Source of the DNA: a virus
DNA: 64,000 nt
Strand: one strand, 5' to 3'
Virus record (IMG/VR): IMGVR_UViG_3300029286_003689
Span: 11,019 to 75,018 of that record
This document shows, piece by piece, positions 10,903 to 62,685 of the stretch; the first letter of the stretch is position 1, and every line of letters starts with the position of its first letter. Below the pieces are notes generated by a model that worked only from the letters and a program-made list of their open reading frames with translations, was not told where the DNA came from and did no database searches. The position numbers and the translations under genes were made by a program.

Positions 10903-11279
10903 GGTTTAAACATCCTTATACTTTCAATGAGAGGTATCCCGTTACACTTAACGCTCTCGCCAATCTCATTATTATAAAAATAAGCTCGTTTTGCTTTTAA
11001 ATTACCTTCTTCAATCTTAAAACCAACAACTACTGAAAACCCCCTTAGTATAGCTACACATGCCTTAATACGATTTATTAACCTTCCCCGGTGGTTACCC
11101 ATCTACCCCTCGCGCTTACTAAGGCGTAAGCTAATCCGGGCTATTTTGAGTTCACGCTTGGCTACCGCCAACATCATCTTCGTATATATGATCTCAAAAT
11201 AATCGCCTACCGCTAACCTTACTATTTCCTCTCCAACTGCTATCATTCTTCCCCTCCCGTTAATCTCGGCTTATCATAA

Positions 11280-26536: not shown

Positions 26537-26737
26537 ATGGAGCTAAAAGATAGGATAAAAATACTCAGAAAAGAAAAACACTTAACCATGTTGCAACTTG
26601 GCAAGGGAGCTAAAGTAGCTGAGTGTACTGTCTCTTATTGGGAAAAGGGCCGTCAGGAACCTAATACTATGCAAAGAAGACGGCTATGTCGCTTCCTCGG
26701 AATTACTCAATCTGAATTATTTAAAGGGGTAACCTGA
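26537..26737 (+). CDS. XRE HTH protein translationally coupled to integrase
   Basis: HTH_3 pattern; TGATG stop/start overlap. Confidence 0.8.
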   Translation: MELKDRIKILRKEKHLTMLQLGKGAKVAECTVSYWEKGRQEPNTMQRRRLCRFLGITQSELFKGVT

Positions 26738-27729
26738 TGTCATCTCTCTACCGCAGAAAAGAGATCTACTGGCTCTCCTTCCGGTACCATGGAAAAGCCT
26801 ACTGTATAAGTCTTGGTACTCGGGATCGCTCCACTGCCATCTATCTAAAGGCCAAAAAAGACCAAGAAATGGCTGAAGGTAAATATATCATTCGCCAGGA
26901 TGTTTCTTGTGAGGAAGTACTGAAAGACTACATGGAAACTTCGCAGCATCGTAAAACAAAAAAAACTAACGATAACGATGAGTCCAGGATAGAAAAATTT
27001 CTAAAGCAGAGCGGGATAACTAAGGTTAATCAGATAACAGAGAAAAGGCTGCAGGAATACCTTAACCATCGCATCAATAAAGATGGGCTTGCGCTTTCAT
27101 CAGCTAACCGGCTTATAGCTACCTTTAAGGCATGGCTTAATTTCGCTGTCAGGCGCAAGATTATCTTTGAGAATCCTATACGATATTTTAAAGGATATAA
27201 CCCGGGCCAACGGCATTTTAAATTATTGACGCTTGATGAGATTAAAACAATAATAGATTCAGCAGAAAAAAATCCACGAGTGGAACTTGCTATTTGGTCT
27301 GGACTATATGCTGGGATGAGAATAGAAGAAGCCTATGGGTTAGAGTGGCCAGACATAGATTTTGAGAATGACGATATAACAATCAAACGAGGCGGGGAAG
27401 TTATAACTAAATCCAAAAAAGAGCGCATTGTCCCTATGACAGAAAAATTCAGGGAAAAGCTTCTATCGGCCAGAAAAAATTCAGGTCGATGCTTTGATTC
27501 TGTCAATCACAAACGCATAGTCGCAAACTTCATAAAATCGACTAAGATAAAGGGTATTAATTTTAAAAGCTTTCGGCATGCTTATGCTTCTTATTTATTA
27601 ATGAGTGGAGTTGATCTCTATACTGTATCTCAGCTTTTAGGACATTCCAGCGTGAGGGTAACCGAACAGCACTACGCACACCTGATAAAGGATCATAAAA
27701 AAGCCTCAGTAAAGAAGCTTCCTTATTAA
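26737..27729 (+). CDS. int: Tyrosine integrase
   Basis: GMRIEE, KSFRH, LLGHSS, HYAH catalytic residues; N-terminal arm-binding region. Confidence 0.93.
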   Translation: MSSLYRRKEIYWLSFRYHGKAYCISLGTRDRSTAIYLKAKKDQEMAEGKYIIRQDVSCEEVLKDYMETSQHRKTKKTNDNDESRIEKFLKQSGITKVNQITEKRLQEYLNHRINKDGLALSSANRLIATFKAWLNFAVRRKIIFENPIRYFKGYNPGQRHFKLLTLDEIKTIIDSAEKNPRVELAIWSGLYAGMRIEEAYGLEWPDIDFENDDITIKRGGEVITKSKKERIVPMTEKFREKLLSARKNSGRCFDSVNHKRIVANFIKSTKIKGINFKSFRHAYASYLLMSGVDLYTVSQLLGHSSVRVTEQHYAHLIKDHKKASVKKLPY

Positions 27730-30262: not shown

Positions 30263-30574
30263 TTAGGTGAATGTATAGTATCGGTCTATTTTCTTTATCG
30301 TCGTGATAAAGGGTATTTCAGTCTTATATTTCTCTATCTGATCACGCAGGACGTTGGAGCCGGTAAACATCACGGATATTTTGTCGTCTAATTTAAACTG
30401 TAACGTCATGCACAGCTCGCAATTCGCTTTCTTATAATGGCTATCTTTAATTCTATAATCCAATACCGTAATCTCTCGATTAACCACGTCATCGAGTTTT
30501 ATCTTATTGCCTTCTAACGGCATAGTTTCCCGGGCGAATTCGTTAAATCGCTTGGGCTGTTTTTCCGGCGACAT
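30263..30574 (-). CDS. Small protein overlapping DGR1 RT end (candidate non-Avd accessory)
   Basis: Overlaps RT 3' end; beta-rich, not four-helix Avd-like. Confidence 0.6.
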   Translation of the reverse strand: MSPEKQPKRFNEFARETMPLEGNKIKLDDVVNREITVLDYRIKDSHYKKANCELCMTLQFKLDDKISVMFTGSNVLRDQIEKYKTEIPFITTIKKIDRYYTFT

Positions 30575-31574
30575 TTAATATCTCCTGTAGTTTGTCCAGC
30601 TGTAGCTTAAGGCCTAAGTTGTGGCAGTTGGCCCAGCGCATCCATCCGGTATATGAAGCGATGCAAGAGCGAAAGTATATAAGGGTGATCCTGCCCGCGG
30701 CCAAGAGCTTAGGTAATATCTTTAAGCGGCGCTTTACTCTTATCGCCGTTGACTTTCTTAAGAGTACGTACTTTGGAAAGTGCCGGTAACCTAAGAAGTC
30801 AACGCCTTGGGAGACCGGGAAGAGTTCGCATTTGCTCATCTTTAAGCCAAGCGTTTTATCTAAAAATATCTTTAAGTATTTAGCAATCCGGCGCAGTTCT
30901 GCTTTGTCGTTATGGAAGAACAAGAAGTCATCGCAATAGCGCACGTAATTTTTGACCTTGTAGACGTGCTTGACGTACTGATCTAACTCATTAAGGTAGA
31001 TGTTACCGAACCACTGGCTGGTGTAGTTTCCGATCGGGACGTTCTGGCCGCCGCCAATTCCGTAAATAATAGCTTTGATTAGGTTCAGAGTATCTTTGCA
31101 TTTAATCTTGCGCTGTAAGATATTAAAAAGAATGTCGTGTTTTATAGACGGGTAAAACTTAGAGATGTCGCATTTAAGGCAATACTTATTTACCCGGACA
31201 AACTCCATAGTCCGCTGGCTTCCGGCGTGCAGACCTTTACCATCGATGCAGGCGTAGGAGTCGTGAATAAACATCGGCTTGTAAATTGGTTCAAGGATGT
31301 TCATTAAAGCGTGATGGACGATTCTATCTGGTGCAAACGGTACGACGTAAATAATACGCTCCTTGGGTTCGTGGACATATTTAATACGGTATACCGATGT
31401 CTTAAATTTTTTGCTAACTAACATCTCTTGTATCCTCTTTAGGTTCTCGTCTATATTCAGGTCAAAGACTCTTACCTGGCGTTGCCAAGTTTTACCTTTA
31501 CGTGTTTTGGCATAAGCGAATTTTATATTCTCGGTTGAAGTGATTCTCTCGTAAAGATTGCCATGCCTCTTCAT
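30543..31574 (-). CDS. DGR reverse transcriptase 1
   Basis: DRIVHHA, KCDISKFY, PIGNYTSQ (DGR SQ motif), RYCDDF, DFLGY; no maturase domain. Confidence 0.95.
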   Translation of the reverse strand: MKRHGNLYERITSTENIKFAYAKTRKGKTWQRQVRVFDLNIDENLKRIQEMLVSKKFKTSVYRIKYVHEPKERIIYVVPFAPDRIVHHALMNILEPIYKPMFIHDSYACIDGKGLHAGSQRTMEFVRVNKYCLKCDISKFYPSIKHDILFNILQRKIKCKDTLNLIKAIIYGIGGGQNVPIGNYTSQWFGNIYLNELDQYVKHVYKVKNYVRYCDDFLFFHNDKAELRRIAKYLKIFLDKTLGLKMSKCELFPVSQGVDFLGYRHFPKYVLLRKSTAIRVKRRLKILPKLLAAGRITLIYFRSCIASYTGWMRWANCHNLGLKLQLDKLQEILNVAGKTAQAI

Positions 31575-31704
31575 TGTTTATATGGGTCGGAAGATTTTCG
31601 GTTTCCCTACTAACCTTCCAGCCCCTCCGTTGTGTATTTTGCCTTGTAACGGCAAGGCTAATGCATCCAGCCAGGAGTTTATTTTCTCCGCACATTCCCC
31701 TGTA

Positions 31705-31818
31705 TCCGCGCAAAACCGGCAGCCGATATTCGTATTCGTATTCCAGCGGTAGTTATTCGCATTTCGATACCGGGACCCCGCATTCGCGGCGTTACTCCAA
31801 TTACCGCCAGCCATCAGC
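31705..31818 (-). repeat. DGR1 template repeat (TR1)
   Basis: 114 bp, 9 AAY codons; matches 31906-32019 except at adenines. Confidence 0.95.
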
Positions 31819-31895
31819 AACCGATGACGCATTAGCCTGTGAAACTCTACTTTTCAAAAAACATCGCGGACGTGGTCCGTGTCCGGTCTACTTCG

Positions 31896-34232
31896 TTAAA
31901 CGGGCTCCGCGCAAAACCGGCAGCCGATACTCGAAGCCGTAGCCCAGCGGTAGTAAGTCGCAGTTCGAGACCGGGACCCCGCATTCGCGGCGTAACCCCA
32001 ATTACCGCCAGCCACCAGCTTAATATCACCACCTGAATCTGAGTTGTCCACTTCGGTAGCGCCTGGGTCAGCAGAAAAAGTTGTATAAACAGAACCTTTT
32101 GCGCCAGGTAAATTTCCCCAGTATCCGGTTGAGCCATAAGGATAATATGTTTGCGTCCTTAGCCATTGGTTCATTACACCGCAGGCATCCTCTACGCCTA
32201 TGTTTGATATCATACGCCTTGAGGCTGTGTCTACGTGGCCGCCGGTGGTCCCCGGGTCTGCTGATCCGGTAATGTTGGTCTCTTCGTTTGAACCGGCTGC
32301 TATGGCCTGGAATTCGTCATCCTCAAGCATCCGTTTCTTAACGGCTGCTCCGTCATCGGCAAAGTCCGACCAGTTCCGGGTATCTGAAATTGTTCCGCCG
32401 TAAACTGAGGTTGTGCTGCCTCCGGTCCCCGAGGCGAGGTAGATATCTACCCACTTATTAGTGCCTTCGCTAAATACCATGCCTTCCGGGTTCGATACTG
32501 GCCGGTGCAGGAGATCCCAAATTGAAGCTGGAAGAACGTCGCCAACGGCAAAGTCGGTTAAGGTATGGCCTGAAATCGTTCCTACGGCAACGCATAGCCC
32601 GTGAAAACCGCCAATCTTGCGGCTTGTTGAGGCTGAGTAGCCTGATGGCGTGGTTGAATTGGCTGATACCTTAATCGTGGGAGCTGCGCCGGACCCAGGC
32701 ACGCAGGCGTAAATATAGAAGTTTACTCCTGCTCTGTTTGCGGCCGTCCTGTAATCTGTCCCGCTTATCGTATCCCACGACGCCTCTAAGGACAAATCTA
32801 CCTCTGCTTGAGCAGTCAAGAAGTAGACTGTTCCGTTGATGTCTACGCTGAGTTTGTTGGGTGTCAAAATGATGTACCTATTTGCTGCTGTTGAGTAGGG
32901 TGTCTTTAAAGCCCACTTCTGGTCGCGCTGGTAAAGGCTTGGGTAAAGGGCTGCTAACTTTTCGGCAAGATAACCGGCTGAGGCGTCACCTGAGACGTTC
33001 TTGACTTTTTCGTCGGTTCCTCCGCCAGCAGGATTAAGTAATTCCCACCTGGTGTTAGCGAGATTATATTCTACGATTGCCACAAAGCCTGCTCCAGCGA
33101 TATCTCCGGCTGCTAAGGCTTGACCGCCTTTCTTAGCGATGGTATGAGGTGTCAGGCCGTCAGGAGCAAATGTCGGGGTTGTGGATGTATTGGCGCCGCT
33201 TGCTACAAAGAAGCAAATAGCCAAATTTGACAGAGTCATATCCGGGGTGTAGTCTGCGGTTATTGCGTCTACTGTGCCTCCCGCTGTGGCGATAGGTATA
33301 CCTGCGGCTGAGGCGGCATAGGCTGCTGCTTGGTCTCTGGCAGTCTCGGCGGCTGCTTGGGCCGTCTCGGCGTTGACTTCTGCGGCCTCTGCGTTAGTTT
33401 CCGCAGTCTCGGCGTTCGTCTCAGCGATTTCAGCGTTGGTCTCTGCTGTTTCCGCTGCGGTTTGGGCGGCCTGCGCTGCGTTCTTGGCCGTTACTGCGTC
33501 GTCTTTGGCTGTTACGGCTGTGTCTCTGGCGGATTCCGCGGCCACTTGCGCGACCTCTGCGTTAGTTTCCGCAGTCTCGGCGTTCGTCTCAGCCAACTCC
33601 GCGTTGGTCTCTGCTGTTTCCGCTGCGGTCTTTGAAGCTGCTGCTTCTGAGGCTTTGGTAGATGCTGTTGCTGCGCTCGCTGCGGCGGCGTTCTGAGAAA
33701 CTAAGGCTGCGGCCGCGCTGGCTGCTGCCGCGACTGCGGCCTCGTCGGCGTCAAGTATTGTGTTCTCTATGCCGTCTCCGTCGTCGTTCCATTTTAAGCC
33801 TTTACCCGGGTCCGGTTCGGCAACTGTAAGGTCTGTGGTCCCGCCGATCTTAGTCTTTAAGGTTCTTTTAACCTCTTCTTTTATATCCTGAACTCCGGCT
33901 ACGGCTTTATCAACCATTGCTTCAACCACTTTAGCTTGGAAACCTGCCGAGGTAGTCAAGGGTACGGCTTGCGACTTTGGAATATCCCTACCAATAACAA
34001 CGTAATAATCGTCAGAAGGAGCGTCTGCAAAAGTTACGACTCCTCCTGGTGTATCGTCGTCAAATTCAACAGTATAATCACTGCCAAGCGTCTGTAAGGT
34101 CTGAACGCCCGTTTCTACGTCCTCAAGATAGACACGGATATTTGCTTCGGCTATCAAAGCAAAACCGAATGAGAACTCCGTCGTTACTCCGTTGCCAAGC
34201 GTTTTTACTGGTGTATAATTGTCAGCTATCAT
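31896..34232 (-). CDS. Tail fibre / receptor-binding protein with Mtd-like CLec C-terminus (DGR1 target)
   Basis: T7 gp17-like N-terminus (GNGVTT.F.F.F), Ala-rich heptad stalk, WVDIYL...G.ED.CG..NQW...GGNW...GSR...IG.RF. Confidence 0.9.
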   Translation of the reverse strand: MIADNYTPVKTLGNGVTTEFSFGFALIAEANIRVYLEDVETGVQTLQTLGSDYTVEFDDDTPGGVVTFADAPSDDYYVVIGRDIPKSQAVPLTTSAGFQAKVVEAMVDKAVAGVQDIKEEVKRTLKTKIGGTTDLTVAEPDPGKGLKWNDDGDGIENTILDADEAAVAAAASAAAALVSQNAAAASAATASTKASEAAASKTAAETAETNAELAETNAETAETNAEVAQVAAESARDTAVTAKDDAVTAKNAAQAAQTAAETAETNAEIAETNAETAETNAEAAEVNAETAQAAAETARDQAAAYAASAAGIPIATAGGTVDAITADYTPDMTLSNLAICFFVASGANTSTTPTFAPDGLTPHTIAKKGGQALAAGDIAGAGFVAIVEYNLANTRWELLNPAGGGTDEKVKNVSGDASAGYLAEKLAALYPSLYQRDQKWALKTPYSTAANRYIILTPNKLSVDINGTVYFLTAQAEVDLSLEASWDTISGTDYRTAANRAGVNFYIYACVPGSGAAPTIKVSANSTTPSGYSASTSRKIGGFHGLCVAVGTISGHTLTDFAVGDVLPASIWDLLHRPVSNPEGMVFSEGTNKWVDIYLASGTGGSTTSVYGGTISDTRNWSDFADDGAAVKKRMLEDDEFQAIAAGSNEETNITGSADPGTTGGHVDTASRRMISNIGVEDACGVMNQWLRTQTYYPYGSTGYWGNLPGAKGSVYTTFSADPGATEVDNSDSGGDIKLVAGGNWGYAANAGSRSRTATYYRWATASSIGCRFCAEPV
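31906..32019 (-). repeat. DGR1 variable repeat in tail-fibre 3' end
   Basis: 13 mismatches vs TR1, all at TR A (5 G, 5 C, 3 T). Confidence 0.95.
33372..33640 (-). repeat. Heptad repeats (AETNAET) with 168-bp internal duplication in tail-fibre stalk
   Basis: CCTCTGCGTTAGTTTCCGCAGTCTCGGCGTTCGTCTCAGC at 33386 and 33554. Confidence 0.8.
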
Positions 34233-58844: not shown

Positions 58845-59254
58845 ACAGCTTCCTTCTGTGCGGGCGCGACCTCTACGGGTTTATCTTCTGCAAGAATAGG
58901 CGCGCCGTTGTTGATAAGATGTTCTATGGTTCGTATGAGCTTAGTTGTGTTTTGACCGCGATACTGCACGGCTCTATCGTCTATGAAAACGTGATATATC
59001 GGCTTCTGTGATGTGTCCGGCGGATTGTGCTTACAGGAGTTTATGCTGTCGTAAGGGACATTGTTACGGCTTAAGTATGCCTTTAATGCCGGTGTAACCT
59101 TTCGTGTGGTCCAGATGATGATGTGGTAGCCTTTGGCCTTGAGCTGCTTCATTGCATCGATGACGTCCCAATTAGGCTTCTCAAAAACGTCTACTCCTTT
59201 CCATCCTTCGTAATGCGCGATGACCCCGTCAAAATCAAAAGCTATGACCTTCAT
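58832..59254 (-). CDS. HAD-superfamily phosphatase-like protein
   Basis: DFDGVI, WT.R, KP, IDDRA. Confidence 0.85.
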   Translation of the reverse strand: MKVIAFDFDGVIAHYEGWKGVDVFEKPNWDVIDAMKQLKAKGYHIIIWTTRKVTPALKAYLSRNNVPYDSINSCKHNPPDTSQKPIYHVFIDDRAVQYRGQNTTKLIRTIEHLINNGAPILAEDKPVEVAPAQKEAVCPG

Positions 59255-60345
59255 GCAACCTCCATTCTTAATTTATTGGTTAGCCGGTAACTGTTGGCGT
59301 GTTTAAGATGACCCATATATGACGCAAACATATCGCGGAATTTCTTAAAGTCTTTTACCTTTGCCTGGCGGAACTGGCGGATTTTTTCTTTAAGGTTGTT
59401 TATCACTCTCCGCCGGACCAGAACGTATGTCGGCCGGATGATGTAGCCTAAGAAGTCTATGCCGTTTGAGATAGGCAGGAGTTTACGGCGTTTCGGGTGA
59501 AGGCGTAGCTTAAGGCGGTTGGTGAGGAATTCTTCAATCTGAGCCTGCCAAGCGCGTAATTGCGAGGCATCTGGGGAGAGGATGACAAAATCGTCTACGT
59601 AGCGCAGATAGTAGTGCGCTTTAAGGACGTGCTTAACGTATTGGTCGAGTTCGTTCAGGTAGATGTTGGCAAAGTATTGGCTCGTCAAGTTTCCGATTGG
59701 CAGGCCGGTTCGGTTATTTTTGCCAAAGAGGCTTTTGTTGGGTGGAATGTTTAAGAGAAGTTGTTGGTCTCCTTTGGGGACGTAGGATTTTGTGCAGTCC
59801 CAGAAGAGAACCTTTTGCGTAAGCCAGAGGATGTCCGGGTCTTTTACTTTGCGCTGAATTATTGTAAACAATAATTCCTTGTCTATTGACGTAAAGAAGT
59901 CCTTAATATCCAGTTGCAGGTAATAGGCGCGGACGTGGCCGTTCTTGGTTGTTTGCCGGGTGAATTTCTCCAAGCGTTCCTTTGCCGCGTGTGTGCCTTT
60001 GCCGTCGCGGCAGGCGTAGCTGTCGTGGATGAAGATAGGCTCGTAGATAGGTTTATACTCATTGGCTAAAAGGTGATGGACGATACGGTCTCTAAAATCG
60101 GCGGCGAATATCTCTCTTTTTTTGGGTTTCTTAACAGCGAAAAGAAGCGAGCGCGAAGGATGGTAAGTCCTATTTTTAAGTTCTTGTTCAAGCTTTACAT
60201 TATTCTCTTCCGCGTTCATCTCGTATTTAAGAGCATTGAAAGTATTGCGCTTCTTACTCTGGCAATCGAGATAAGCGGTATCTACATTCCTGTAAGAGAA
60301 TTTATCGTTTTGTAAGCCGCTGGCTGGGACGGACAGGCCGAACAT
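59251..60345 (-). CDS. DGR reverse transcriptase 2
   Basis: AYLDC..KKRN, FRDRIVHH, LDIKDFF, LPIGNLTSQ, RYVDDF, DFLGY; start ATG lies inside TR2. Confidence 0.95.
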   Translation of the reverse strand: MFGLSVPASGLQNDKFSYRNVDTAYLDCQSKKRNTFNALKYEMNAEENNVKLEQELKNRTYHPSRSLLFAVKKPKKREIFAADFRDRIVHHLLANEYKPIYEPIFIHDSYACRDGKGTHAAKERLEKFTRQTTKNGHVRAYYLQLDIKDFFTSIDKELLFTIIQRKVKDPDILWLTQKVLFWDCTKSYVPKGDQQLLLNIPPNKSLFGKNNRTGLPIGNLTSQYFANIYLNELDQYVKHVLKAHYYLRYVDDFVILSPDASQLRAWQAQIEEFLTNRLKLRLHPKRRKLLPISNGIDFLGYIIRPTYVLVRRRVINNLKEKIRQFRQAKVKDFKKFRDMFASYMGHLKHANSYRLTNKLRMEVA

Positions 60346-60430
60346 AATATTTGTTGTCCTTATTGTTGTAGTTCACGTTGCCGTTGTCATAATTCACGAT
60401 GCGAGCGTTGCTCTTATTCCAGGCAACCTT
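60326..60430 (-). repeat. DGR2 template repeat (TR2)
   Basis: 105 bp reading KVAWNKSNARIVNYDNGNVNYNNKDNKYYVRPVRP; 9 AAY codons. Confidence 0.95.
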
Positions 60431-60558
60431 TGCTTACACACTTATTGCCTCTTCTTGAGGCTCTTCAAGAACCGATCCTTTTGGGTACGGTTCTTTGTGT
60501 TCTTATACCGTTTTAAGGTGGCGTAAGCGCCCAGTGAGTTACAAAATCGCACGCTTCC

Positions 60559-60924
60559 TCAAGGTTTACCGCTTGGGGAATTCTGGCACTTTAACCATCC
60601 TTCGCACTGCTTTGCTACCTCAACAACTTTCTTGACTGCGACCTCAAAGCTTTTGAAACTGTTAAATGCTTTCCTGCGTTTGGCAAAGCGCAAGAGAATC
60701 TTCATTGCCTCCAGTTTATCGCGCACCTGAATAAGGCAGTCCTTCCGCTCTGCCTTCTTGATGGCTGAGGCGATTAAAAGGAGTGCTTCAAGAGAAAGAT
60801 TAAGCAGCTTAGTCCCGACGGTATATTTGTGGCGTTTAGCGAAATAGCAGACTATCTCATCAATATACTCCGCAAGGTCTAAGGCACTCTTATAGATTGG
60901 AAGATTCTCGTATGCGCTTTCCAT
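60559..60924 (-). CDS. avd: Avd accessory variability determinant (four-helix bundle)
   Basis: LPIYK...F...HKYTVG...KQ..GWLK; basic; between target and TR. Confidence 0.88.
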   Translation of the reverse strand: MESAYENLPIYKSALDLAEYIDEIVCYFAKRHKYTVGTKLLNLSLEALLLIASAIKKAERKDCLIQVRDKLEAMKILLRFAKRRKAFNSFKSFEVAVKKVVEVAKQCEGWLKCQNSPSGKP

Positions 60925-60948
60925 TCAAACCCCCTAAAGGTCAAAAAA

Positions 60949-61341
60949 TCAATTCACTGGCATGGGACGGACAGGCCGAACATAATAAGAGTTGCCCTTA
61001 ATGTAGTAGCCCACGAGGCCGAAGCCATAACTCACGATGCGAGCGTAGCTCTTACTCCAGGCAACCTCGGTCTTAGTTGCGTAGTAATCGTCCGTTTTGG
61101 TATCGGCGAAGATCGGGAAGAAGCAGGGGTCGCCTTCAAAGTTAATAATGGACGTTGCCTCCGCGGCCGTTGGTTCTTCTCCTCCGAGTTTGGCGCAGAA
61201 TTCTTTTCTGTCCTCCGGACCCATTATCCTGTCAGAGCTGGGGCCGTGCTCTTTTCTCTCCCTGTAATCCCTTATCCAGCCGTCGGGAAGTTTCTCAAAC
61301 CTTGCCGGATCGTTTACGTCAATAACTACCTTTACTTCCAT
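60949..61341 (-). CDS. DGR2 target 1: stand-alone Lcl/DUF1566-like CLec protein (130 aa)
   Basis: ATG 61341 with AGGAGG RBS; RF..LPDG.I.D, PT..E..SI, ends YVRPVR; contains VR. Confidence 0.85.
   Translation of the reverse strand: MEVKVVIDVNDPARFEKLPDGWIRDYRERKEHGPSSDRIMGPEDRKEFCAKLGGEEPTAAEATSIINFEGDPCFFPIFADTKTDDYYATKTEVAWSKSYARIVSYGFGLVGYYIKGNSYYVRPVRPMPVN
60964..61068 (-). repeat. DGR2 variable repeat VR-a
   Basis: 17 mismatches vs TR2, all at TR A (7 G, 8 T, 2 C). Confidence 0.95.
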
Positions 61342-61495
61342 GCCTCTCCTCCTTGTTAAAAAGTTACGCAGGTGTTTGCTAAGGCGTAGGCTAACCAAAG
61401 CAAGCCCCTGCGTATGTCCCCCGTTATTAAATAGACTATGCCTGCGCCTATACAGGCCACAATTACCAGAAGCGGAAATATCTTCTCTTTAGTTA

Positions 61496-61795
61496 TCATG
61501 CGTAAGCAAACGTCCTTTGGCTTTCCATCGTAATCGGCGTGTTGCGCGAGATAAAGATACGCACGGCCTCAATATGGCTGCAATACTTATTCTTGTGAAA
61601 CCCCTGACAGTTGCAGCGGTAGGTATCGTCGGGAAACTTCTGGATGGTGTACGTGTGAATGTTGTAGCCGAGAATGGGCTTGCATATCCAGGTATTCTCT
61701 CCGGTCTGGACAATGCAGTCTTTCTCAAGGAATTTGTTTGCCTTATCATTCATACGCTGCCGCGACTCCGAAGTTAAAAAAGCTTGCTCTTTCAC
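61496..61795 (-). CDS. SWIM zinc-finger protein
   Basis: PI.GYN..TY, CNCQG...CSH; homologue of 19411-19710. Confidence 0.75.
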   Translation of the reverse strand: MKEQAFLTSESRQRMNDKANKFLEKDCIVQTGENTWICKPILGYNIHTYTIQKFPDDTYRCNCQGFHKNKYCSHIEAVRIFISRNTPITMESQRTFAYA

Positions 61796-61810
61796 GTTCT
61801 TGCCTCCTTT

Positions 61811-62122
61811 CTATGCCTGCGGCTGCGGGTTATACTTCTCCCACTTCTTCAAGAAGAGCGCGCCTTTGGGCTGCTTATACTCTCCGAATTCCTGCTTAGA
61901 TTTACATTTAGGACAGTAGAGTTCCACGTAGATATACTGGCCGTCTTTGGTCTGCCTGGCGCGAAGCTCTATATCTTTATCGTTCTGACAGATACCACAT
62001 ACCCCCTTAAGCTGCATAAAGGGCGTGGCCTTGAGCAGGGCTTCTTTAAGGTCTTGCTCTCCGTCAAACTTGATGGTGAGTTGGGTGGTGCAATTTATCT
62101 TTTTCGTTACCGTAATATCCAT
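61811..62122 (-). CDS. Small Zn-binding protein
   Basis: CxxC...CxxC; ATG 62122 with AAGGAGGT RBS. Confidence 0.6.
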   Translation of the reverse strand: MDITVTKKINCTTQLTIKFDGEQDLKEALLKATPFMQLKGVCGICQNDKDIELRARQTKDGQYIYVELYCPKCKSKQEFGEYKQPKGALFLKKWEKYNPQPQA

Positions 62123-62154
62123 GCTTACCTCCTTAAATTTAATTGTCAAAAAGT

Positions 62155-62685
62155 CTAAATACTGGCTGGACGGACAGGCCGAACATAATATTTGTAGTCC
62201 TTATTGTGGTAGTCCACGTAGCCGTCGCCATAACCCACGATGCGAGCGTAGCTCTTATCCCAGGCAACCTCTTCGTTCGTCCAGTAACCGGCCTCTTTTG
62301 TGTCTTTAAAGATAGTGGTATCTATCTGGGGACCGTTGGCTTTATTTTTCACTAAGGAGAAGCCCAACTGCGGCGAGTGTAAGAACCAGCCCTTATGACC
62401 GGCGAAGCTAAGTTCGGCGCAAGCTATCTTTGACTCTTCCCAAGGCATACCCTCTTTGAAGTGATTTGGCAGGTCCGTGTGGGGAAGGGTTACGAGATAC
62501 ATATTGTGCCAGGTATCAAATACTGTGCCGTCGTGGTTGTCAATGTAGCGCGGTTCCGGATAGTCTTTAACCTTGATAATCTTTACGTGTCTCTGTGCTA
62601 AGATTGCCGAGATATCTCTGGCTGCTCCCTCAAGGTTGGTGCGGTCTTTTAATACTTTCAAAATCTGGTTCTGATTCAGTTGCAT
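62155..62685 (-). CDS. DGR2 target 2: Lcl/DUF1566-like CLec protein (176 aa)
   Basis: RYIDNHDGTV.D, M.WEE...AC..L.FAGH.GW, YW, YVRPVR; contains VR. Confidence 0.88.
   Translation of the reverse strand: MQLNQNQILKVLKDRTNLEGAARDISAILAQRHVKIIKVKDYPEPRYIDNHDGTVFDTWHNMYLVTLPHTDLPNHFKEGMPWEESKIACAELSFAGHKGWFLHSPQLGFSLVKNKANGPQIDTTIFKDTKEAGYWTNEEVAWDKSYARIVGYGDGYVDYHNKDYKYYVRPVRPASI
62168..62271 (-). repeat. DGR2 variable repeat VR-b
   Basis: 11 mismatches vs TR2, all at TR A (7 G, 3 T, 1 C). Confidence 0.95.

Follow-up and report, generated by a model that had tools for sequence, protein, structure and literature searches.

In Bordetella phage BPP-1, the diversity-generating retroelement (DGR) mtd-avd-TR-brt diversifies Mtd, a 381-aa trimeric tail-fibre tip protein of the late module, and DGRs are usually viewed as devices that change the outside attachment of a phage or cell. 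A non-structural phage DGR target with a proposed conflict role is already published: in Quimbyvirus, the target ORF 80/84 lies among nuclease and methyltransferase genes, and a role in phage-host conflict was proposed for it (Benler et al. 2021, Microbiome 9:78, PMC8008677). Short DUF1566-only targets and two-target cassettes have been catalogued (Wu et al. 2018, PMC5758913), two-target DGRs are described for the gut phages nd4/nd12 with their 'tentaclins' (PMC10743442) and for the Faecalibacterium phages Lelie/CP11 (PMC11792537), and cytoplasmic cellular targets include cyanobacterial regulatory proteins (PMC7517822) and putative antigen sensors of multicellular bacteria (bioRxiv 10.1101/2023.09.22.558884).

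The locus described here lies in a 64,000-nt window (IMG/VR record IMGVR_UViG_3300029286_003689, positions 11,019 to 75,018) from a temperate freshwater phage, some relatives of which are binned with Candidatus Omnitrophota. [quoted passage not shown] As in Quimbyvirus, the hypervariable CLec genes are separated from the structural module and have nucleic-acid-metabolism genes as neighbours, here methyltransferase, nuclease and replication genes; T1 and T2 most likely share a functional class with the non-structural Quimbyvirus target. In Quimbyvirus, however, one RT/TR serves both a tail-module and a remote non-structural target, in a gut Bacteroidota host, whereas the present cassette appears dedicated to two non-structural targets in a freshwater/Omnitrophota setting. 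Distinct here are a dedicated second DGR beside a tail-fibre DGR, Lcl_C-type targets and an environmental host lineage; a little-studied class known from phages of gut Bacteroidota would thereby come to include environmental phages whose hosts belong to an uncultured phylum.

Other described systems share single traits. In the Legionella pneumophila LdtA/'category d' (DUF1566, CLec2) targets (PMC5758913) the VR likewise lies within a DUF1566/Lcl_C-type CLec domain, but LdtA is a surface lipoprotein, and T1 and T2 are phage early genes by position, with neither lipobox nor signal peptide. One TR also serves two CLec-type proteins in nd4/nd12 and Lelie/CP11, including a small one without assigned function; those pairs, however, contain a protein presumed to be structural or an adhesin, which carries Ig or other domains, rather than two minimal paralogous CLec domains in an early operon. 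The cellular targets are diversified recognition domains predicted to be intracellular, but they belong to large cellular proteins of several domains, of signalling or STAND type, unlike the bare phage binding domains found here.

One template repeat serves two target genes

The components of the element are as follows.

59251..60345, minus strand: DGR reverse transcriptase (RT), 364 aa; RVT_1 1.3e-20, with IGNLTSQ and YVDD in the translation
60326..60430, minus strand: template repeat (TR), 105 nt with 35 A; read in the frame of the VRs it has nine AAY codons
60559..60924, minus strand: avd accessory gene, 121 aa; Pfam bAvd 1.9e-15, 57.7 bits against a cut-off of 40
60940..60960, minus strand: conserved AT-rich motif just past VR1, spanning the T1 stop codon, from the alignment of VR ends
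60964..61068, minus strand: VR1, codons 92-126 of T1 (130 aa), at the 3' end of the gene
62139..62165, minus strand: conserved AT-rich motif just past VR2, spanning the T2 stop codon, a candidate target-side homing element
62168..62271, minus strand: VR2, codons 139-173 of T2 (176 aa), at the 3' end of the gene

A repeat search of the window returned three copies of a 103-nt repeat (60327-60429, 60965-61067 and 62168-62270). The initial annotation had claimed one TR with two VRs in separate genes, flanked by avd and an intact RT, and both claims held: when the repeats are compared without gaps on the minus strand, which is the coding one, all 17 mismatches between TR (60326-60430) and VR1 (60964-61068) and all 11 between TR and VR2 (62168-62271) are at TR adenines; counting VR2 over 105 nt adds one C>A difference at the very last base. 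The genes are ordered T2 ... T1-avd-TR-RT, and the final 20 nt of the TR overlap the RT start codon.

Besides its above-threshold bAvd match, Avd matched NCBIfam DivGenRetAVD at 1.2e-12 (48 bits, under the cut-off of 80). The RT was assigned to the DGR clade by its motif 4, (I/L/V)GxxxSQ, together with YxDD and its adjacency to the TR, and it scored under the cut-offs of every NCBIfam group II, retron and DRT model. Across 96% of its length it shares ~40% identity with RTs encoded by Shewanella, Burkholderia and Pseudomonas phages; 90 GenBank phage records match it, Bordetella phage records among them. In relatives the RT is full-length and 74-80% identical. With TR/VR differences confined to adenines, an adjacent RT carrying these motifs, Avd and a C-terminal VR in a CLec-fold target, the element is confirmed as a complete DGR, one TR serving two targets.

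An identical GC-rich 23-mer closes the TR and both VRs; the window contains exactly three copies of this invariant 3' end, against none in 100 shuffles. The AT-rich motif that follows is VR-specific: it is conserved when seven VR ends of four loci are aligned, and absent after the TR. In a further difference from BPP-1, no GC-rich hairpin is predicted past the VRs, nor any stable hairpin after VR1 or VR2 (z +1.4 to +1.5).

The C-termini of both targets vary at template adenines

The layout of one TR and two VRs recurs in five independent relatives, where 141 of the 151 TR-VR mismatches fall at adenines. In alignments of 21 T2 and 23 T1 homologues the hypervariable columns (6-10 residue types) coincide exactly with the nine AAY (Asn) codons of the TR, while the VR codons without A are invariant. 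Read from these alignments, adenine-specific mutagenic retrohoming is shown to have rewritten the C-terminal segment of T1 and T2 repeatedly and independently across the lineage.

That the cassette is now a fossil, its VR differences recording past retrohoming by an element inactive in the present prophage, is very unlikely: all three components (RT, Avd and TR) are intact, adenines and AAY codons are retained in the TR, and the VR sequence differs in every relative. A fossil would fit the contigs of three lake metagenomes, whose VR1 and VR2 are identical to those of the window with no A-site variants listed, but assembled contigs suppress rare variants and the samples are perhaps not independent.

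T1 and T2 are small paralogous C-type-lectin-fold proteins

The two target genes are as follows.

60949..61341, minus strand: T1, 130 aa, little more than a bare Lcl_C/DUF1566 CLec domain; Pfam Lcl_C 9.8e-6
62155..62685, minus strand: T2, 176 aa, an Lcl_C/DUF1566 CLec domain behind an N-terminal helical extension of ~40 aa; Pfam Lcl_C 4.4e-14, 53.2 bits (cut-off 34.9)

T1 was taken to start at the ATG at 61341, a TTG at 61398 giving an alternative of 149 aa. T1 and T2 are 42-47% identical across 85-95 residues. T1 matched Lcl_C (PF07603) at 26.3 bits, under the Pfam cut-off of 34.9, and 13 of its 23 aligned homologues carry a precomputed PF07603 match. Structure prediction, proposed in the initial annotation, gave a lectin fold for T1 but not a usable model for T2. 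The AF2 model of T1 (pLDDT 68.6) has as its top structural match the C-terminal domain of Legionella Lcl, at a modest though highest Z of 5.7, the remaining listed matches being nearly all C-type-lectin-like or related lectin folds, including TaqVP, TvpA and Mtd; the T2 model was of low confidence (pLDDT 37), and the CLec fold of T2 is assigned from its profile match.

Both targets are whole genes rather than fibre fragments, since homologue lengths are constant (127-140 aa in the T1 family, 23 aligned; 173-178 aa in the T2 family, 21) and full-length T2 matches come only from ~175-aa proteins, longer ones aligning only from about residue 40 on. These sizes and the Lcl_C matches bear out the description of stand-alone CLec-like targets in the initial annotation and speak against fragments of a longer fibre gene. 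Its statement that the targets lack a signal peptide or membrane segment likewise stands: sequence and profile analysis detected no signal peptide, membrane segment, stalk or known virion domain in T1 or T2, and no member of either family has a lipobox or a 19-residue hydropathy window above 1.15. Neither had a tblastn match among 50,697 GenBank phage records (E up to 1 and 1e-3). T1 and T2 are paralogous, small, soluble CLec-fold proteins, in families that are conserved and well delimited and hence tractable for expression, structure determination and partner search.

Lcl_C domains are typically found within surface proteins, and our profile search placed Lcl_C-type domains mostly in multi-domain and very large proteins. 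This would suit an extracellular or virion-associated adhesin, T1 and T2 acting as non-covalently docked receptor-binding or decoration subunits, or as lectins freed at lysis, with their early position marking the landing site of a mobile DGR module. The family-specific helical N-terminus of T2 could serve for docking, receptor binding is the role of those phage DGR targets that have been characterised, and small prophage CLec-only targets are by default read as a tail-fibre component (Macadangdang et al. preprint; Roux et al. 2021). We nevertheless regard an adhesin as somewhat unlikely, given the absence of signal peptide, membrane segment, lipobox, stalk and known virion domain noted above, with T1 a bare domain, and given the genomic position of the genes and the separate fibre DGR described below.

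Position points to an early operon separate from the fibre DGR

Three further genes lie between the targets and are given as context only.

61356..61499, minus strand: membrane protein, 47 aa, directly upstream of T1; 19-residue hydropathy window 2.72
61496..61795, minus strand: SWIM-finger-like protein, 99 aa; Pfam SWIM 0.0014, 18.6 bits against a cut-off of 19.6
61811..62149, minus strand: zinc-ribbon protein, 112 aa; phrog_1257 7.7e-6

Among relatives the membrane protein is 89-96% identical (L007, L008, L015, L016, L019) and the SWIM-finger-like protein 88-94%; the zinc-ribbon gene is syntenic in L004, L008, L015, L016 and L021 and missing in L007. The targets sit between the exonuclease (exo) and replication-initiator genes, with a HAD gene as another neighbour, and two methyltransferase genes, VRR-NUC and DHH genes lie downstream. 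The terminase is ~9.3 kb downstream, the targets lying 9-11 kb upstream of it. The neighbours named in the initial annotation are therefore present, the SWIM finger weakly so, and its early-operon location agrees with their position. The survey of homologous prophages that it proposed found the same context: the order exo-T2-zn-swim-tm47-T1-avd-TR-RT-HAD-repini...terL is retained in at least 10 contigs, and the whole arrangement in at least five related (pro)phages. In a close relative, L015, the operon starts at a divergent CI-like/Cro-like pair beside a serine recombinase; ~2.5 kb separate cro from T2, which lies downstream. Position thus supports placing the cassette in a cro-side early recombination/replication operon.

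Shared by at least 10 contigs and by three different phage backbones, this placement argues against the adhesin explanation; every prophage gene is on one strand, however, so late read-through is possible, as that explanation would allow. It is gene position that carries the case against a virion role, and phages can also encode structural or decoration proteins away from their late genes.

The fibre already has a DGR of its own, as follows.

30543-31574: RT of the fibre-directed DGR
31705-31818 and 31906-32019: TR and VR of the fibre-directed DGR

It does not share the 23-mer homing end of the early-region element. Judged from these sequences, a dedicated avd-TR-RT cassette serves only two putatively non-structural targets and an unrelated DGR serves the fibre, a clean separation of two uses in one genome.

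Probable action within the infected cell

We favour, at a probability of roughly 0.55, the reading that the targets of this complete DGR of the early operon, T1 and T2, are variable binders whose most likely place of action is the interior of the infected cell, in conflicts of the phage with its host or with other phages. The proposal in the initial annotation, cytoplasmic binders such as adaptive inhibitors of host defence proteins or of competing phages, would agree with this reading and has a precedent in the role put forward for the Quimbyvirus target. An intracellular site is suggested by the presumed co-transcription with early genes, by the lack of any export, membrane or virion-docking signal, and by the separate fibre DGR. 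One template RNA region encodes nine Asn codons and other adenine-containing codons, and the corresponding C-terminal segment of both proteins has been rewritten; on this reading the cassette would be transcribed together with the exo, replication-initiator and methyltransferase genes, and T1 and T2 would act within the cell as binding proteins with a variable surface. Each progeny genome would carry its own T1 and T2 alleles, to be expressed early in the following infection, so that a genome with a useful binder could itself be selected. If so, this would be a natural, virus-borne, self-renewing library of intracellular binders, of relevance to the biology of counter-defence and to directed evolution with minimal CLec scaffolds of 130 aa.

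The same genes might instead encode lysogen-protecting sensors, the diversified module of the prophage detecting or blocking superinfecting phages. Diversified cytosolic recognition proteins in defence have been put forward in a DGR-immunity hypothesis (Belalov et al. 2023, PMC10053308), putative sensors are described in cyanobacteria and multicellular bacteria, and the highly conserved 47-aa membrane protein that always precedes T1 could in principle be an effector. Such a role is nonetheless improbable. The genes lie downstream of the CI/Cro switch in the cro-side lytic operon and repression in lysogens is therefore expected; the targets carry no fused effector domain; promoters and terminators are not enriched within the cassette, which has no evident autonomous ones; and PADLOC gave no match for avd, T1, T2, zn112, SWIM, h104, HAD or exo, with only generic RT models on the two RTs.

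Possible pairing of T1 and T2

Within the preferred reading of intracellular variable binders, T1 and T2 may work as a pair. The predicted T2:T1 complex has an ipSAE of 0.80 against 0.06 for the best control, a mark attained by 58 out of 80 solved complexes but by two out of 110 mismatched pairs; its runs agree in at least 65% of contacts (partner pLDDT 90). C-type-lectin-like dimers are common among solved structures, so the score may reflect recall by the predictor, and interface conservation gives no backing to the predicted pair. We consider it quite unlikely that T1 and T2 form a heterodimer whose DGR-written beta-hairpins lie side by side as a two-chain combinatorial site, expressed early within the cell against variable host or rival-phage proteins; paired antibody variable domains would be a loose analogue of such a site. 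If it existed, it could also account for the frequency with which DGRs directed at genes of the early module have two small, paralogous targets. Two other phage backbones have T1 but no T2, a point against the preferred reading. In its favour, an unrelated phage that lacks an RT encodes a T1 homologue, again within a replication module.

A second DGR with one template and two targets

A repeat search of the window gave three copies of one sequence (60327-60429, 60965-61067 and 62168-62270), of which the adenine-rich one is the template repeat TR (60326-60430; 35 A in 105 nt, the coding strand being the minus strand). TR differs at 17 positions from VR1 (60964-61068) and at 11 from VR2 (62168-62271), every one at a template adenine, and the initial annotation of one TR matching two variable repeats, with 17/17 and 11/11 substitutions at TR adenines, was thus correct to the coordinate. 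The 3' 23-mer common to TR and the VRs occurs exactly three times in the 64 kb and not once in 100 shuffles. Read in the frame of the targets, TR contains nine AAY (Asn) codons.

Target genes and post-VR motif
62155-62685, minus strand: T2, target carrying VR2; 176 aa; Pfam Lcl_C/DUF1566 above the gathering score
60949-61341, minus strand: T1, target carrying VR1; 130 aa from the ATG used by its homologues; Lcl_C below the gathering score
60940-60960 and 62139-62165: AT-rich post-VR motif, also at the same place in the further records L004, L007 and L009

Between the nearer VR and TR lies avd (121 aa), which scores above cut-off with Pfam bAvd and also matches the NCBIfam Avd model, there below cut-off. 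The RT (59251-60345, minus strand; 364 aa) bears IGNLTSQ and YVDD, so that both an avd and an intact RT do flank TR, as had been proposed. Across its full length this RT shares ~40% identity with its counterparts in GenBank phages of Shewanella, Burkholderia and Pseudomonas, and Bordetella phage records are also present among its 90 matches there; the cassette DNA itself matched GenBank phages only in short RT stretches. DGR2, as we call this avd-TR-RT cassette, is a textbook DGR in the order target ... target-avd-TR-RT.

The RT start codon is inside TR (20-nt overlap at 60326-60345, with the ATG within TATTATGTTCGG), an overlap also kept in L004, L007, L013, L014 and L019. Every VR, in both target families, is followed by a conserved AT-rich motif (consensus CCAGTGATTTGATTTTTTGACAATTAA) that spans the stop codon and is absent 3' of TR; it may serve this DGR lineage as a recognition element on the target side. 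A BPP-1-type GC-rich hairpin was predicted after neither VR.

Record of diversification

A large protein database contained 21 T2-like proteins (60-100% identity, 173-178 aa) and 35 T1-like proteins, 23 of which were aligned (127-140 aa). In both alignments the protein body is conserved, the columns with 6-10 residue types (entropy above ~2 bits) are exactly the nine TR AAY positions, and no variation occurs at the adenine-free codons (V, A, W, R, G, P). One TR with two VRs is found in five independent loci (the window, L004/L021, L005, L007 and L019), and 141 of the 151 TR/VR mismatches in these whole-cassette loci fall at template adenines, which argues that DGR2 has been active repeatedly in the lineage.

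The sequencing runs containing this sequence, among them lake-water, landfill and groundwater metagenomes, were available as assembled Logan contigs rather than raw reads, and no RNA run was among those listed. Contigs from three lake metagenomes carry the VR alleles of the window, and variants restricted to adenine sites did not appear among those listed at the VRs, although assembled contigs hide minority variants. In the two best metagenomes, summed contig depth reached 187 and 285 over the TR bin (60340-60473) against roughly 15-50 in other bins, and many other TR/VR-like sequences of this type are therefore present in the same two metagenomes.

Small Lcl_C-type target proteins

A profile search of 1.84 billion representatives returned 5,336 relatives of T2. 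The long ones (as large as 6,363 aa and with as many as 12 matched stretches) align only from T2 residue ~40 onward, and full-length matches are limited to proteins of ~175 aa; T2 is thus one Lcl_C domain with a family-specific, helical N-terminus of ~40 residues, while T1 is essentially a bare Lcl_C domain. The target sizes of 130 and 176 aa are as initially described.

Structure prediction was informative for T1 only. Its AlphaFold model has a pLDDT of 68.6, with low values confined to the variable segment, and gave zero Foldseek hits in the PDB at E <= 0.001. In exhaustive structural alignment the top match was the C-terminal domain of Legionella Lcl (Z 5.7), and nearly all remaining listed matches are C-type-lectin-like or related lectin folds, including TaqVP, TvpA and Mtd, which are DGR variable proteins. 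The Z-scores are modest, but the match list is homogeneous and consistent with Pfam. The T2 model (21 sequences) was unusable (pLDDT 37), and sequence-profile searches against the PDB gave nothing meaningful.

Hydrophobic segments are lacking in both families (the highest 19-residue Kyte-Doolittle means are 0.94 and 1.15) and no member of either has a lipobox, in line with the proposal that the targets are devoid of signal peptide and TM segment. Upstream extension of the ORFs to gain a signal peptide was rejected, as these are stop-bounded and the homologues share one start. A frameshift fusion of T1 with tm47, a 47-aa membrane protein gene, was also rejected, as the frame offset between the two genes varies among loci. 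PADLOC and PHROGs assigned no function to T1 or T2. Several mostly viral clusters of stand-alone Lcl_C proteins (136-191 aa) exist in the ESM Atlas, so that minimal Lcl_C proteins are a recurrent phage gene type.

Genomic setting

The DGR2-bearing phage spans roughly 28-64 kb of the window (64 kb, the end of a 75-kb IMG/VR provirus record), with all genes on the minus strand. Upstream of the cassette are genes for a 104-aa protein and a PD-(D/E)XK-type exonuclease (exo); downstream are those for a HAD phosphatase, a replication initiator, a VRR-NUC nuclease, two DNA methyltransferases and a DHH phosphoesterase. Terminase (small and large), portal, capsid and tail genes start 9.3 kb downstream of the cassette. 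The exonuclease, SWIM, HAD and replication-initiator neighbours and the distant terminase are as first annotated. At least 10 contigs (IMG/VR, JGI metagenomes, two Candidatus Omnitrophota MAGs) share the order exo-T2-zinc ribbon-SWIM-47-aa membrane protein-T1-avd-TR-RT-HAD-replication initiator ... terminase, with minor variants (T1 and T2 are adjacent in L008 and L019); the survey of related phages that had been suggested thus recovers a shared gene context.

In L015, the closest relative reaching further upstream, the operon begins at a divergent CI-like/Cro-like HTH pair beside a large serine recombinase, and T2 starts ~2.5 kb downstream of the Cro-like gene. In L021, host genes stop ~3 kb upstream of exo. 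The only gap roomy enough for an internal promoter is the 129 nt between avd and TR, and consensus scans of the cassette for promoters and terminators found nothing above chance. The Cro-side layout of L015, together with this lack of an internal promoter signal, makes placement of the targets in an early operon, as initially proposed, a well-supported positional inference.

Three further features of the region may be mentioned. The tm47 gene (61356-61499) is always immediately upstream of T1, is translationally coupled to the SWIM-finger gene through an ATGA overlap, and ranks with the best-conserved genes here (89-96% identity in five relatives, ~50% in L004/L021). In relatives, a Hydrolase_2 cell-wall hydrolase or SLT lytic transglycosylase gene lies just upstream of exo (L015:3632-4153, L021:8752-9162), an unusual location for a muralytic enzyme gene, within the cro-side early operon. 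A tyrosine integrase gene (26737-27729, plus strand) abuts the late-gene end of the DGR2-bearing prophage; it probably belongs to a neighbouring prophage, since relatives carry a large serine recombinase beside the CI-like gene at the opposite end (L015:64-1797).

A separate fibre DGR and a T1 homologue in an RT-less phage

Other loci compared with DGR2
30543-34232: second, unrelated DGR, with RT, TR/VR and 778-aa tail-fibre gene
L009:9900-10480: T1 homologue in a replication module with DnaD-like loader and DnaB-like helicases

The tail genes are followed by that for the 778-aa fibre and then by a second RT (343 aa; phrog_1423 'Reverse transcriptase', 1.8e-120) with its own TR/VR pair (114 nt, 31705-31818/31906-32019, 89% identical), whose VR is at the 3' end of the fibre gene. 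The two RTs of the window are only ~33-36% identical to each other, and the homing end of DGR2 is not present in the fibre.

A T1 homologue with 82% identity occurs in L009, a different phage record (39.9 kb, 97% complete) without any RT. Perfect 108-nt direct repeats flank this homologue and take in the final 21 nt of the VR; an orphan target, the insertion of a cassette and an effect of assembly are all conceivable.

Predicted pairing of T1 and T2

Since T1 and T2 occur together in every complete cassette, complex prediction was run on the pair. The T2:T1 complex had a median ipSAE of 0.80, versus 0.06 for the best of three controls (of 80 solved complexes 58 attained this mark, of 110 mismatched pairs 2), with runs agreeing on at least 65% of contacts and a partner pLDDT of 90. 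The tightest predicted contacts join T2 155-159 with T1 107-112, equivalent G-x-V-x strands of the two variable hairpins in antiparallel arrangement; residues of this interface show no more conservation than the remainder. The chains are paralogues, and the prediction does not separate a heterodimer from general self-association of the domain. Dimers of lectin-like domains abound among solved structures, and the score may reflect their memorisation by the model. T1 occurs without T2 in two other phages. A two-chain variable binder formed by the pair is an attractive idea, though improbable as a full scenario.

Likely site of action

Beyond the demonstrated retrohoming footprint, DGR components and fold, we infer that T1 and T2 most likely act intracellularly (probability roughly 0.55). 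The main rival sees them as accessory adhesins on the particle or as lectins set free by lysis, which is how small prophage CLec targets are read by default in the field; we consider this unlikely, and favour an intracellular role because the early-operon position is conserved in three phage backbones, T1 and T2 have no export or anchoring signal, T1 has no virion-docking domain, and the fibre has a separate DGR. A sensor protecting the lysogen is less likely, since the CI/Cro switch has the T1 and T2 genes on its lytic side.

For an intracellular role, early lytic expression of the DGR would place fresh alleles in the genomes being replicated. Every progeny phage would then produce its own T1 and T2 variants early in the next cell, and selection could act on the genome encoding a useful binder, just as with a receptor-binding protein. 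Anti-defence, host take-over and rival-phage exclusion are all compatible with this; PADLOC and PHROG families gave no hints to a binding partner. The initial interpretation is thus partly supported, for the element, its targets and their early-operon position; that the targets are adaptive inhibitors in the cytoplasm stays a hypothesis.

DUF1566-type (CLec2, "category d") DGR targets have been catalogued (Wu et al., 2018; PMC5758913), and viral targets have been split into "structural" and "unknown" (Roux et al., 2021; PMC8144416). Moreover, the Quimbyvirus DGR diversifies one tail-module and one non-structural protein, with phage-host conflict proposed as the role of the latter (Benler et al., 2021; PMC8008677), and a non-structural phage DGR target is therefore not a new concept. 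Unlike Quimbyvirus, where one DGR serves both kinds of target, the avd-TR-RT cassette here is devoted solely to non-structural targets, and an unrelated second DGR acts on the fibre of the same phage. Further differences are the Lcl_C-type targets, T1 and T2 having no tblastn match in 50,697 GenBank phage records, the predicted pairing of the two, and the environmental lineage, linked to Omnitrophota by several MAG labels. Outside phages, the T2 lectin domain has its nearest relatives in giant proteins (P0059-P0074) of 1,100-6,400 aa with up to 12 matched Lcl_C-like stretches.
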